A stretch of 41,608 nt of DNA, taken from NCBI GenBank assembly GCA_964596475.1, contig CAZQTS010000002.1, forward strand, positions 1-41,608. The letters run 5' to 3'. The position numbers and the translations under genes were made by a program. This DNA comes from an uncultured Gammaproteobacteria bacterium (lineage in GTDB: Bacteria; Patescibacteriota; Patescibacteriia; UBA1558; 2-01-FULL-52-15). Below, in pieces: positions 4,770 through 28,057 of the stretch. The notes beneath the pieces are model-generated. The model was not told the origin of the DNA. It was given only the letters and a program-made list of their open reading frames with translations, and ran no database searches. The stretch's first letter is position 1. Each line of letters starts with the position of its first letter.

Positions 4770-4798
4770 TTGACAACCAAAGAGAATCATACTATCGT
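4770..4798 (+). promoter_or_regulatory. Candidate sigma70-type promoter (TTGACA-17 nt-TATCGT) upstream of the tRNA-Gln locus
   Basis: TTGACA at 4770-4775, a 17-nt spacer, then TATCGT at 4793-4798. It lies about 25 nt upstream of the first (truncated) tRNA copy. Confidence 0.35.
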
Positions 4799-4823
4799 TG
4801 GTATGATTTTTTAAACAAATCAT

Positions 4824-4878
4824 TCGGGGATCGTCTAACGGCAGGACACCAGGTTTTGGTCCTGGGAATTGGGGTTCG
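4824..4878 (+). pseudogene. Truncated copy of tRNA-Gln(UUG): exact 55-nt duplicate of the 5' portion (acceptor 5' strand through T-loop position G57)
   Basis: 4824-4878 is identical base-for-base to 5217-5271. Identity ends inside the T-loop (TTCG|AAT). There is no matching 3' T-stem or acceptor strand downstream. Confidence 0.8.
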
Positions 4879-4919
4879 CCCGGTCATCCGACCGGGCGCC
4901 CGGGGTTCATCCCCGGGCG
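4879..4919. repeat. GC-rich double hairpin inserted at the break point of the truncated tRNA copy
   Basis: CCCGGTC-atcc-GACCGGG is a 7-bp stem. It is followed directly by CGCCCGGGG-ttcat-CCCCGGGCG, a 9-bp stem. The next bases are 'aatcc', which continue the T-loop sequence for 5 nt. Confidence 0.7.
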
Positions 4920-4952
4920 AATCCACGCTAATAAACTTGACGAAAAGCGATT

Positions 4953-5231
4953 ATGGTCTACGTATATTTTTTACGTCTCAACGACGCGACTATCTATAAA
5001 GGGTTGACTACGAGGCTTAAGGAACGCTATAACGAACACAGGCTCGGTAAGGTTCATTCAACAAAACACAAGAGACCGTTATTGCTAATTGGATATGAAG
5101 CGTACATGTGTAAAAGCGATGCTGAGCGCCGAGAACGTTTTTTAAAGACCACGGACGGAAGATGCTTGCTGAGGCAACAATACCGTGATGCATTGAACGA
5201 ATCAATGCAACATCTTTCGGGGATCGTCTAA
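4953..5231 (+). CDS. Small GIY-YIG nuclease family protein (UPF0213/YhbQ/Slx1-like)
   Basis: 92 aa. 'VYVYFLRLNDATIYKGLTTRLKERYNEH' carries the GIY...YIG-type motifs and a conserved Arg. 'AERRERFLK' supplies the conserved Glu region. The last 15 nt, including the TAA stop, lie inside the downstream tRNA. Confidence 0.8.
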   Translation: MVYVYFLRLNDATIYKGLTTRLKERYNEHRLGKVHSTKHKRPLLLIGYEAYMCKSDAERRERFLKTTDGRCLLRQQYRDALNESMQHLSGIV

Positions 5232-5290
5232 CGGCAGGACACCAGGTTTTGGTCCTGGGAATTGGGGTTCGAATCCCTATCCCCGAGCCA
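5217..5290 (+). tRNA. tRNA-Gln (anticodon UUG), 74 nt with genomically encoded CCA
   Basis: Manual cloverleaf: acceptor TCGGGGA/TCCCCGA; D arm GTCT-AACGGCA-GGAC; anticodon arm CCAGG-TTTTGGT-CCTGG (TTG); variable GAAT; T arm TGGGG-TTCGAAT-CCCTA; discriminator G; CCA. Confidence 0.9.
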
Positions 5291-5463
5291 GCCTTCGCCA
5301 AGGCTTCGGCTGGCAAGCCCTATTGGAAAAGGCTTAGCGAAGGCTGGCGAGGTTTCCGGCACTCCGTAGCTTCATGCGAAGGGCGCCCAGAGCCATCCGC
5401 CAGAGGCGGATGCCCCGAGCTTGTCGAGGGGCCCCAGTGAGGGTTTGCAAAAGCTCTTTTTTT
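5287..5463. repeat. GC-rich multi-hairpin intergenic element (REP/MITE-like) ending in a T-run; may act as the terminator for the tRNA transcript
   Basis: There is a 12-bp inverted repeat, GCCAGCCTTCGC (5287-5298) with GCGAAGGCTGGC (5337-5348). An alternative partner GGCTGGC lies at 5308-5314. A hairpin CATCCGCC-aga-GGCGGATG spans 5394-5412. GAGCTT (5417-5422) can pair with AAGCTC (5451-5456), followed by seven Ts at 5457-5463. Confidence 0.55.
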
Positions 5464-25576: not shown

Positions 25577-25991
25577 AGGTCCAAAATTTATTCATAAAAA
25601 AATTCCAAAATACCACTACTCCTATAGTGAGCACATTAGCGATGAGGTCATAGATCCCGAACCGTCGCACCAAGATATAGAGAATCGATGCAGACAGGCC
25701 GAGCGAGACAAGACTGACAATAACGAATTTGACATATTGCTCAAAGGCGGCTTCCAGCGAACGCGAACGAAACGTCCAGTATTTGTTCATCGTGAAACTG
25801 AAACAGACAGCTGCAAACCACGACACGACCTTTGCCACCATGAAATGCAAGCCGAACACGCGGGTTGCCAGTAGATACACGGTAAAATCGATAATTGAAT
25901 TGCCGGTTCCGACAATGCTGAATTTGGTAAACTGCCTGTAGTGAGGCGGCACGATGCTTACGATGAGCTGTTTTAAATTCATGATGATCAT
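25566..25991 (-). CDS. GtrA-family membrane protein (polyprenyl-phosphate-sugar translocation associated)
   Basis: 141 aa. 'FTKFSIVGTGNSIIDFTVYLL' and 'FSFTMNKYWTFR...FWNFFMNKFWTF' are the duplicated GtrA signatures. It has four TM helices. Confidence 0.8.
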   Translation of the reverse strand: MIIMNLKQLIVSIVPPHYRQFTKFSIVGTGNSIIDFTVYLLATRVFGLHFMVAKVVSWFAAVCFSFTMNKYWTFRSRSLEAAFEQYVKFVIVSLVSLGLSASILYILVRRFGIYDLIANVLTIGVVVFWNFFMNKFWTFGR

Positions 25992-28057
25992 TTCGTTAAG
26001 CTAAAGCCGAAGCGGACATTCCTTTGTACGGTATCGTTCCCCGCAGCATCAATGGTATTGATTATGCGGCCATAATAATCGAACAGGGTCAACGACGTAC
26101 CCGCAACAAGCGGATACGTTATGATATCCACCTGACCGTCGCCGGTGTAGTCAGCAACCAAGAGACTGATCTGCTGTTCAGGGATACTCGGGTTCGGAAA
26201 GAGTGGAAACCGATTCTTCTCCTGTGCCTGACCGTCGAAGATGCGCGCCTGCACGTTGCGATCAGTCTCTTGGGCAACGATAATCTCGTTTCGACCGTCA
26301 TAATCCACATCACCAACACCGAGTGTCAACCCGCCACGGAAATCTGAAGCAAAAGCCATGAACTGGCCTTTGAGACCGCCATGCTGATCAAAAATACGGA
26401 TATGAGGGCCGCCGCGCGATGCAGGAGCAGTTAAAATCTCTGCTCGTCCGTCGTTGTCAATATCTCCTGCCGCAAGTTTCACCCCTCCCCGAAAACGCTG
26501 ATCATAACTGAAAAAGCTGCCAACCGCCCGACCCTTTCCGTCAAACACTCGGACTTGTGGACCTGCTCCGGAAAGCACCGCAACGATGATCTCTGCCTTT
26601 GCATCGCCATCGACATCAGCAACAGCAACACTTAATCCGCCACGGAAGTCGGGTGCGAAAGCCATAAATTGACCCTTGAGGTCACCCTGCAAATTAAAAA
26701 TCCGGACATGGGGACCGCCCTGTGAAAGCGGAACAGTAACGATTTCATTTTCCCCGTCGCCATCAACATCCCCGGTTGTCACCGATACGCCGCCATTAAA
26801 GCGCGGCCCGTAAGCTAAAAACTCTGATATGGTGACGCCGTTTTTGTCCTTTACGAGAACCCGAGAACCAAAACCCCGACCTGGCGCCATGACAATACGC
26901 ACCGGCTTCTTTCGTGAAAGCCCCAGCGCCGCATCAACTGCCTTCTTGATATCCAACATTCCGCTGCCCAGATCCTGATAATTGGTATTTGAGGCCTGCA
27001 GGCTGCTTGCGTTAGTAAGGATCAAGCGGTAGATGTCAGCAAGATTCAAATTCGGTGCCACCGCCTTAATCATGGCGATAGCGGCCGAGACTAATGGTGC
27101 TGCAACCGAGGTGCCGCTCCACCCGCCTGCGTAGTAGAGGTTAAAATCCGGGTTATTCGGGATGTACCACGCCGTGCTAAAAAAATTAGTTCCTGGCGCG
27201 GCGATATCAATACAGGACGATCCGTAATTGGAAAAAGGAGCCAACGTATTGAACGCGTCCACGGCCGCAACGCCCACCACATGATTGATGCCCGCCTCTT
27301 CGCAAATCGGATACCGCGGCATTTCATCCAAATCAACGCCAACATTCTCCTGATTTCCGGACGCTGCAACTACCGCAACACCGGCGTTATACGCAGCCTC
27401 AATACTGTGCACAAGACGCGGATCTCTGACATCACCAATAAGGCTCAAATTGATCACGTCGGCACCGTTTTCGACTGCGTAATCAATTGCTTGCGTCAAG
27501 AGAATTGTATTTCCCGCGCCACTGCTGTCTAAAATCCTTAGGGGCATGATTTTTGTCGAGAGCGACGCGCCGGCAACACCAATCCCGTTATTGATGACTG
27601 CCGCGATGATACCGGCGACCACCGTACCGTGATTGGCACCCTCGTACGAATACCCCTCTTCTAATTTTGGTCGTGGATCAGGCCGTGACAGCAAGAAATC
27701 CCAGCCCTGCACATCATCGATGTAGCTGTTAGCGTCGTTATCAATCCCGTCCGCAGCTATTTCATCTGCATTGTGCCAGATATTCTGCGATAAATCTGGA
27801 TGATCAATGGCAACGCCGGTGTCGAGTACTGCCACCACGATGTCTCGACGTTGTGTGTACTGTTGGACCACATCCCATGCCGAGGATGTTTTTACCCGCA
27901 ACAGATACTCTTGTCGTGCAAATTCCGGATCATTCGGCAGCAGCGCAATCGAGACTTGTTCTCGTCCGAAGCCGCCTGCCCGGAGACCAAAAAAAGGCGT
28001 GCCCGTGATCATGAGCACTAACATAAAACAGAGGTGTTTCTTTACTCGCCAAAGCAT
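25988..28057 (-). CDS. Secreted S8 (subtilisin-family) serine peptidase fused to a C-terminal FG-GAP/integrin-alpha-like repeat propeller
   Basis: Catalytic triad contexts are 'VAVLDTGV' (Asp), 'HGTVVAGIIAA' (His) and 'GWSGTSVAAPLVSAA' (Ser). At least five repeats of the type 'GDVDGDGENEIV / ADVDGDAKAEII / GDIDNDGRAEIL / GDVDYDGRNEII / ADYTGDGQVDII' follow. The start is set at ATG 28057 ('MLWRVKKHLCFMLVLMITG', signal-peptide-like). The ORF-track start at 28159 would run through the promoter-like site and into the edge of the hairpin-element region. Confidence 0.8.
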   Translation of the reverse strand: MLWRVKKHLCFMLVLMITGTPFFGLRAGGFGREQVSIALLPNDPEFARQEYLLRVKTSSAWDVVQQYTQRRDIVVAVLDTGVAIDHPDLSQNIWHNADEIAADGIDNDANSYIDDVQGWDFLLSRPDPRPKLEEGYSYEGANHGTVVAGIIAAVINNGIGVAGASLSTKIMPLRILDSSGAGNTILLTQAIDYAVENGADVINLSLIGDVRDPRLVHSIEAAYNAGVAVVAASGNQENVGVDLDEMPRYPICEEAGINHVVGVAAVDAFNTLAPFSNYGSSCIDIAAPGTNFFSTAWYIPNNPDFNLYYAGGWSGTSVAAPLVSAAIAMIKAVAPNLNLADIYRLILTNASSLQASNTNYQDLGSGMLDIKKAVDAALGLSRKKPVRIVMAPGRGFGSRVLVKDKNGVTISEFLAYGPRFNGGVSVTTGDVDGDGENEIVTVPLSQGGPHVRIFNLQGDLKGQFMAFAPDFRGGLSVAVADVDGDAKAEIIVAVLSGAGPQVRVFDGKGRAVGSFFSYDQRFRGGVKLAAGDIDNDGRAEILTAPASRGGPHIRIFDQHGGLKGQFMAFASDFRGGLTLGVGDVDYDGRNEIIVAQETDRNVQARIFDGQAQEKNRFPLFPNPSIPEQQISLLVADYTGDGQVDIITYPLVAGTSLTLFDYYGRIINTIDAAGNDTVQRNVRFGFSLTK

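Follow-up and report, generated by a model that had tools for sequence, protein, structure and literature searches.

Three described systems come close to the locus considered here. Ssn enzymes are 94-aa single-domain GIY-YIG nucleases that bind GC-rich hairpin repeats flanking their own genes and cut single-stranded DNA (ssDNA) a few nucleotides upstream; SsnA of Neisseria meningitidis (CDD cd10448) is the member associated with the NTS/SRM hairpin repeats, and its describers noted that the hairpin-gene-hairpin arrangement looks like an insertion sequence (PMC11893778). SegB, a free-standing GIY-YIG homing endonuclease of T-even phages, has its gene within their tRNA gene cluster (PMC2330249, PMC13096335). 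It cuts within tRNA genes at RAWTSGAAC, the complement of the T-loop GTTCGAATC, and drives recombination-dependent tandem amplification of the tRNA together with segB (PMC13096335). Non-intron insertions with ORFs for GIY-YIG proteins are known from the 16S and 23S rRNA genes of bacteria of the candidate phyla radiation (CPR; PMC11270868). Here we describe a GIY-YIG nuclease gene wedged between a truncated and an intact copy of a tRNA-Gln gene in a 41,608-nt stretch of DNA, hereafter the window, from a 911-kb genome of the Patescibacteria (78 contigs, estimated 93% complete; a sister genome is labelled Candidatus Komeilibacteria). The window locus combines a partial tRNA copy, hairpins, a single-domain GIY-YIG open reading frame (ORF) and an intact tRNA on the same strand, and is one member of a widespread, apparently unpublished class of cassettes with this composition that occurs phylum-wide. 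Our full-text literature searches found no published description of GIY-YIG cassettes lodged in tRNA genes. In the labels used below, C denotes contigs of the source genome, G related genomes and L fetched cassette or locus stretches.

The window cassette lies on the forward strand and is bounded on both sides by tRNA sequence. A truncated tRNA-Gln(UUG) consisting of tRNA nucleotides 1–55 was located at 4824–4878, and an intact tRNA-Gln(UUG) with an encoded CCA end at 5217–5290 (ARAGORN; Rfam RF00005, 55.7 bits). A first-pass annotation made from the letters alone had proposed that the 55 nt are duplicated exactly, and they are: positions 4824–4878 and 5217–5271 match at 55/55 nucleotides. The repeat also extends further than was proposed, taking in 5 nt of leader to give direct repeats of 60 nt (4819–4878 and 5212–5271) with a single mismatch, ATCAT versus ATCTT, just 5' of the tRNA. 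An exact 55-nt repeat at a spacing of 393 nt lies far beyond chance. The upstream copy breaks at G4878 within the T-loop (TTCG/AAT) and is followed by a 41-nt block of two perfect hairpins at 4879–4898 and 4899–4919 (no strand assigned), which stands within TTCG/AATCC. The pentanucleotide AATCC at 4920–4924, on the forward strand, continues the T-loop and T-stem. It is followed by a 28-nt leader (4925–4952), which carries a conserved motif, GAAAAGCGATT, at 4942–4952 immediately 5' of the ATG, and then by the 92-aa GIY-YIG ORF (4953–5231). The 3' end of this ORF lies inside the intact tRNA: its final 15 nt coincide with nucleotides 1–15 of the tRNA, and its TAA stop (5229–5231) corresponds to tRNA nucleotides 13–15 in the D-arm. 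The native tRNA promoter, TTGACA-17-TATCGT (4770–4798, forward strand, 10/12 in a consensus scan), now precedes the truncated tRNA copy, and the scan detected no further promoter-like site on the forward strand between it and the intact tRNA. ARAGORN and Rfam called a single tRNA in the whole window, and the truncated copy was not called. The T-loop break, the double hairpin, the ORF with its stop in the D-arm and the position of the only promoter had all been read in this way in the first-pass annotation, and the ARAGORN run that it recommended gave the one tRNA-Gln(UUG) at 5217–5290.

With the neighbouring gene for a 534-aa membrane protein as a guide, the orthologous loci were fetched from the four closest genomes, members of three other genera in this family. 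In each of them (G009, G003, G008 and G001), about 20 nt separate a TTGAC(A/G)-17-TATCGT promoter from a single, uninterrupted tRNA-Gln(UUG), and none of the four has a GIY-YIG gene at this site. The truncated copy of the window occupies the place that the tRNA holds in these empty sites, and the intact tRNA stands 393 nt further downstream. Because the relatives show the same promoter and a single uninterrupted tRNA-Gln without the nuclease gene, the comparison supports the earlier proposal that a unit of ~393 bp was inserted and left an intact tRNA behind, which is the more parsimonious reading although not a proven one; the search for empty sites in related genomes had likewise been suggested at the first pass. 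Filled and empty states also occur within one genus, as at tRNA-Ser(GCU), where G003 is filled, G009 is empty and the tRNA is identical at 90/90 positions. The layout of the window was also found in independent assemblies, including L116 (from a metagenome-assembled genome, MAG, at NCBI) and L117 (an ENA contig), which argues against an assembly artefact.

The 92-aa product matches one Pfam domain, PF01541 (E = 4.5e-10, 40.1 bits against a cut-off of 22.6, residues 2–68). The four paralogs of the source genome, and likewise the clade alignment, show no variation at residues Y5, Y15, G17, R25, H29 and E61, and a PDB profile search (profile A1) returned UPF0213 entries as the best solved relatives (1zg2, E = 5.6e-15; 1ywl, E = 2.1e-12). 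No NCBIfam family claims the window protein; in two paralogs, the first ~38 residues gave a match to TIGR01453 that fell short of its cut-off. These matches point to a catalytic GIY-YIG domain alone, of the UPF0213/Ssn type, and not to a classical two-domain homing endonuclease. The identification as a GIY-YIG nuclease made at the first pass was sound, but the protein of 92 aa comes without the DNA-binding domain of the classical homing endonucleases. Consequently, site-specific homing in the manner of I-TevI or the Seg proteins cannot be assumed. Synonymous divergence (dS) is saturated, with non-synonymous divergence (dN) at 0.2–0.45 (0.27 against the nearest relative), and only dN and third-position identity are therefore reported. 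With its catalytic residues invariant and dN at 0.2–0.45, the nuclease looks functional.

Further cassettes beside tRNA fragments, which the first-pass annotation had predicted, were found both in the source genome and across the phylum. On contig C28, two hairpins come after a 28-nt 5' fragment of tRNA-Lys(UUU), and behind them stand seven more tRNA nucleotides and an 88-aa ORF whose TAG stop forms nucleotides 8–10 of the intact tRNA-Lys. C77 has the mirror layout, in which tRNA-Val is followed by the ORF and then by a hairpin-patched 3' fragment that ARAGORN miscalls as a tRNA-Val. A fourth cassette (C61:5018–5198), with a tRNA 5' fragment, a hairpin, the leader and the start of a GIY-YIG gene, is ended by the contig edge, and the same contig holds an ORF-less remnant (C61:4677–4846) in which a 12-nt 5' fragment of tRNA-Leu precedes long palindromes or hairpins and then an intact tRNA-Leu(GAG). 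The paralog on C51 has no tRNA nearby and groups (SH-aLRT 86–94) with two more GIY-YIG genes that have no adjacent tRNA. A weak fifth GIY-YIG candidate, at window positions 25849–26046, was rejected as spurious (E = 0.12, internal stop). The cassette repeats probably break the source assembly, which yielded only 21 tRNAs. Contig C40, for instance, begins (positions 1–100) inside the 3' part of a tRNA whose T-loop, TTCG/ATTCC, holds a near-identical double hairpin, and the source assembly contains no intact copy of this tRNA. At C76:2627–2700, ARAGORN called a tRNA with the anticodon CUA (labelled tRNA-Pyl), with a double hairpin of the window type 70 nt downstream; this may be a suppressor-like or a decayed tRNA copy. 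Genome-wide recoding of TAG, a possibility prompted by this tRNA and by in-frame TAGs in some relatives, was rejected for the source genome, as TAG ends 116 of the 489 long ORFs.

An orientation-aware census covered 70 GIY-YIG ORFs from 13 sister genomes in the family, which carry between 1 and 18 copies per ~1-Mb genome. A tRNA on the same strand starts between −87 and +66 nt from the stop codon of about 35 of the 70 ORFs, with modes at +5 to +7 and at −9, the latter placing the stop on T8-A9-G10 of the tRNA. About six further ORFs show the mirror layout, and an adjacent tRNA on the opposite strand was found for none of the 70. At a density of no more than 60 tRNA genes per Mb, which was assumed rather than counted, chance adjacency would be below 1% per gene. 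In at least 15 loci of the sister genomes, and likewise in the window and C28, DNA upstream of the ORF matches the tRNA exactly over 9 nt or more from its position +1 onwards; the longest such match in the sister genomes is 46 nt. In an even sample of the phylum, the family was present in 102 of 151 genomes (68%), and 14 of the 30 top loci had the same-strand layout. The layout is thus recurrent and strictly co-oriented with the tRNAs. Several copies contain single internal stops and are probably decaying, among them the tRNA-Arg cassette of the window clade (L044, G005:C17), which has an in-frame TAG at codon 69 where its relatives have D or E. In two species of one genus, cassettes at the same tRNA-Gln(CUG) were seen in opposite layouts, fragment-ORF-tRNA versus tRNA-ORF-fragment, in L089 (G010) and L050 (G012), whose proteins belong to distant clades.

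The two perfect hairpins of the block, CCCGGTC-ATCC-GACCGGG and CCCGGGG-TTCAT-CCCCGGG, fold as DNA (4879–4919) at −21.9 kcal/mol (z = −3.65), and 0 of 200 shuffles folded as well. Among 13 hairpins of the window clade, the tip TC-ATYC-GA is fixed (TC-ATCC-GA in the window; tip TCATCCGA) and the stems differ with compensating changes, a covariation count that is partly circular, as hairpins were chosen for stems of at least 5 bp, and that shows only variable stems around a fixed tip. The pair often carries the motif in both orientations. Insertion occurs at YTCG/AA, which is the T-loop TTCG/AATCC in the window, L044, L112, L113 and L116 and the anticodon loop CTCG/AAATG of tRNA-Ser(CGA) in L115 and L112. 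The sequence AATCC follows the hairpins in the window, L044, L054, L112, L113, L116 and L118. The first-pass annotation had noted it correctly but took it for the next five nucleotides of the local tRNA; since L118 has AATCC next to a local T-loop of GACTCC, and L054 has it in a block that comes after only 10 nt of tRNA, we assign AATCC to the hairpin block itself. In the broken tRNA copies of the family, the part of the tRNA next to the native flank is retained. These copies carry one to three GC-rich hairpin insertions at D-loop, anticodon-loop and T-loop positions (L044, L049, L050, L112), and they end 4–9 nt past the ORF-proximal hairpin (window, C28, L044, L048, L049, L062, L111, L115, L116). 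Ahead of the start codon, C77, C28, C61, L049, L054, L041 and L062, which represent several protein clades, share a leader motif, GAAA(A)GCGAYT(A/T)TG, that occurs in or out of frame.

GC-rich hairpins were also seen outside the cassettes. Directly 3' of the intact tRNA of the window lies about 170 nt of GC-rich multi-hairpin DNA (5287–5463), the first hairpin of which overlaps the CCA end. Related genome G001 has GC hairpins right after its tRNA-Gln as well (L036, 370–420), and the downstream hairpins of the window are therefore taken to be independent of the cassette. At C56:5530–5600, two hairpins of the same motif family as those in the cassette, CCCGGTCGTATGACCGGG and TCCGGTCATTCGACCGGA, lie just upstream of the start of the 16S rRNA gene.

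Relatives of the window cassette were found at other tRNA genes. The related-locus search returned no match with the window protein as a single query, an alignment of the four paralogs offered no stretch conserved enough to search with, and the more distant relatives were retrieved by a locus search with a three-sequence clade alignment. In a tree of 74 proteins, the window clade (SH-aLRT 99) includes cassettes at tRNA-Gln(CUG) in G008, tRNA-Ser(GCU) in G006 and tRNA-Arg(UCG) in G005. The closest relative is the G008 cassette (L054), with 71% protein identity; in G008 the tRNA-Gln(UUG) site is empty and tRNA-Gln(CUG) is occupied, and in the source genome it is the reverse. Relatives of 70% identity or less, from Liptonbacteria, Nealsonbacteria and other groups, sit at several tRNA-Ser genes and at tRNA-Pro, and the layout of L116 is nearly a carbon copy of that in the window. 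For the 42 tRNA-linked cassettes, the protein tree requires at least 29 changes of tRNA identity, against a mean of 32.6 after shuffling, and the tRNA-Met, tRNA-Tyr and tRNA-Leu(GAG) sites carry cassettes in several genera. Members of a single protein clade thus occupy different tRNA genes, a switching of sites. One MAG contig labelled as an uncultured Gammaproteobacteria (L113) holds a cassette with hairpins of the same type, arranged in mirror layout and 58% identical, reflecting either a binning error or a transfer outside the Patescibacteria.

The hairpins follow the nuclease. Hairpins with a TCATYCGA tip were found at 3/3 sister-clade loci and at none of ~60 other scanned family loci, which carry other hairpins; each protein clade keeps a hairpin type of its own. 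Between the window and L054, the ORF is 62% identical in nucleotides and 31% at third positions, and the 50-nt block running from TCG through the hairpins to AATCCA is conserved at 48/50 positions. Conservation of the block at 48/50 while third positions have fallen to 31% shows that the hairpin block is a constrained cis element that belongs with the nuclease, and that nuclease and block are both under constraint.

Taken together, these patterns are most readily explained by a selfish cassette of hairpins plus nuclease that colonises tRNA genes by break-induced recombination, a reading that we hold tentatively, at a little under an even chance. In the mechanism envisaged, an Ssn-like nuclease would bind its cognate hairpin in ssDNA and nick a few nucleotides away; the junction between pseudo-tRNA and cassette lies 4–9 nt from the foot of the hairpin. 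Loops of tRNA genes that contain TCGAA, the T-loop above all, would resemble the hairpin tip and serve as preferred landing sites. Host recombination would then repair the break with conserved tRNA sequence as homology, copying in the cassette and partly duplicating the tRNA, such that one working tRNA would always remain and the other copy would be left broken and hairpin-tagged. The nuclease gene would have no promoter of its own and its expression would ride on the tRNA promoter; a single transcript of nuclease gene and tRNA, processed by RNase P, is what the first-pass annotation had predicted. Hairpin pairs that stand alone at other places in the genome would be derivatives of a non-autonomous kind. 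The complete chain of steps, which we infer, is a shade more tentative than the general reading. A stronger form, in which the cassettes would be autonomous elements of ~320–400 bp whose hairpin-guided single-domain GIY-YIG nuclease attacks the loop-coding parts of tRNA genes in ssDNA and always regenerates an intact tRNA, is somewhat unlikely. If true, the cassettes would rank with the smallest bacterial mobile elements known to encode an enzyme. They would persist in genes that are essential and present once, and their way of homing, specific to tRNA genes, would differ from that of introns, inteins, integrase islands and HUH transposons.

Several considerations weigh against a selfish cassette. 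Cleavage by the window protein is itself a prediction, and a GIY-YIG hydrolase cannot join DNA. The invaded allele retains an intact tRNA with an uninterrupted T-loop, and insertion thus gives no immunity: a nuclease directed at the tRNA would keep cutting its own host, and the classical logic by which insertion destroys the target site does not apply. Moving to another tRNA requires new tRNA sequence at the right end of the cassette, and repair of a simple T-loop break from the donor would give a chimeric tRNA. About half of the genes of the family, that on C51 for example, are not beside tRNAs. The published Ssn hairpin pattern, HGTCWY...RNCYNB, had five matches in the genome against ~4 expected (1–6 in simulations), none of them near the GIY-YIG genes; the window-type hairpins have another sequence, with a tip that contains GTCAT. 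A precise deletion between the direct repeats would yield the same empty sites as a gain, and gain and loss are accordingly not strictly separated. Finally, all of the relatives found are at most 71% identical, and there is no sign of recent movement of the window copy.

The hairpins themselves may instead be what moves. Pairs of the same type stand alone, without an ORF, in a T-loop (C40), 70 nt after a tRNA (C76), in the 16S leader (C56) and in a second copy at L111, and in L044, L049, L050 and L112 the loops of the pseudo-copy hold as many as three inserted hairpins. The insertion-site consensus YTCG/AA and an excess of GC-rich hairpins in the source genome (351 versus ~135 expected), clustered near tRNAs, would likewise suit a palindromic, non-autonomous unit of ~40 nt on which the nuclease acts in trans in the manner of RAYT/REP or SsnA/NTS. 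The hairpins would land in tRNA loops that contain TCGAA, and unequal recombination at nuclease breaks in these loops would yield tandem duplications of the tRNA. The gene would then not home, and would be trapped by such duplications as in the SegB/T6 case, for which segmental amplification driven by SegB has been shown experimentally. However, the junction between ORF and tRNA is tight and regular in dozens of loci of different clades, with the stop 5–7 nt before the tRNA or at its nucleotides 8–10 or 13–15, which random trapping does not predict, and an ORF clade takes its hairpin type with it from one tRNA to another. We consider it rather unlikely that the hairpin pair alone is the mobile unit. 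The long-term constraint on nuclease and hairpin block would in turn be expected of a domesticated host function, in which the nuclease and the hairpin-tagged pseudo-tRNA modulate recombination or transformation at tRNA genes, or protect these genes from integrase-type elements, and genomes differ by differential loss. The retention of cassettes at the tRNA-Met, tRNA-Tyr and tRNA-Leu(GAG) sites across several genera, the presence of the family in 68% of the sampled genomes and the host-level role of SsnA in transformation are consistent with such a function. The range of 1 to 18 copies per ~1-Mb genome, the nearly random tRNA identity on the protein tree, the premature stops in some copies (L044), the ORF-less remnants and the filled and empty sites within one genus are not what it predicts; they are typical of selfish cycles of gain and decay, and make domestication improbable.

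An ordinary local tandem duplication of the tRNA beside an unrelated housekeeping gene of the YhbQ type, or an assembly artefact, might be suspected in an assembly fragmented into 78 contigs in which only 21 tRNAs were found. The same architecture in independent assemblies and many genomes, the strict orientation, the conserved hairpin block and leader, and the absence of the GIY-YIG gene from this position in the relatives leave either of these very improbable indeed. Three known classes of element were also considered and rejected. The 393-nt insert holds only the 92-aa ORF, with neither a tyrosine nor a serine integrase, and duplicates the 5' 55 nt of the tRNA, not its 3' part, which excludes an integrase-type island; no Rfam intron is present, which excludes a group I intron; and there is no HUH (Y1) transposase TnpA of the IS200/IS605 kind, the only ORF with a family match being the GIY-YIG gene.

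Should the selfish cassette prove to be self-propagating, the most reduced genomes of bacteria would host a nuclease of fewer than 100 residues, without a DNA-binding domain, that parasitises tRNA genes which are essential and present in one copy, and that does so via partial gene duplication rather than splicing. The large and mostly uncharacterised UPF0213/Ssn-type GIY-YIG family would gain a second biological context beside the control of transformation in Neisseria and a mechanistic link to phage SegB, and the many natural pairs of nuclease and hairpin could serve as a source of tools for single-stranded DNA. On the practical side, the tRNA fragments and repeats that the cassettes create break assemblies and mislead tRNA finders, as in the tRNA-Val call on C77.

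The cassette shares features with each of the systems already described and differs from each. The CPR rRNA insertions come from the same phylum and likewise place GIY-YIG ORFs in structural RNA genes, at the tips or bases of stem-loops. They interrupt the rRNA gene, whereas in the window tRNA function is kept by duplication and not by removal of an insert from the RNA. A parallel to the partial duplication is the mitochondrial atp6 element of Allomyces macrogynus that Paquin et al. are said to have described in 1994, in which a GIY-YIG ORF reportedly travels with a partial copy of the host gene, so that an intact gene is restored and the resident part displaced. That element is said to be an in-frame fusion in a protein-coding gene, without hairpins, and to destroy its target site by divergent replacement; the two tRNA copies of the window, in contrast, are identical. 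IS200/IS605 elements and the REP/RAYT system are also very small, with subterminal hairpins recognised in ssDNA, cuts at a fixed distance and dispersed non-autonomous derivatives. They work through a HUH tyrosine transposase with covalent intermediates, whereas a GIY-YIG hydrolase needs host repair.

SegB, too, is a GIY-YIG enzyme whose gene lies among or next to tRNA genes and which has no preference for a tRNA isotype. Its recognition motif is the T-loop read on the other strand, and the window hairpins stand at the corresponding GTTCG/AATC; it also yields tandem repeats that contain the tRNA and the nuclease gene. SegB has two domains and a length of at least roughly 200 aa. The window protein, at 92 aa, lacks its C-terminal DNA-binding domain and is encoded in the chromosome of bacteria with ~1-Mb genomes, whereas SegB is a phage gene product that acts on double-stranded DNA and comes with neither a hairpin block nor a hairpin-tagged pseudo-tRNA. 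With the Ssn enzymes, the window protein shares a single domain of ~92–94 aa without a DNA-binding domain and the corresponding catalytic residues (Y6, Y17 and E64 in SsnA; Y5, Y15 and E61 in the window). In both, GC-rich hairpins lie beside the gene and recur elsewhere in the genome, the hairpin type co-varies with the protein, and the SsnA cut a few nucleotides from its hairpin would fit the 4–9 nt between hairpin foot and junction in the window cassette. They differ in that the window-type gene is wedged into a tRNA gene with partial duplication of the tRNA and has hairpins on one side only; tRNA is not mentioned in the Ssn report (PMC11893778). On this comparison, Ssn is the closest known system in how the cassette would work, and SegB the closest in its target.

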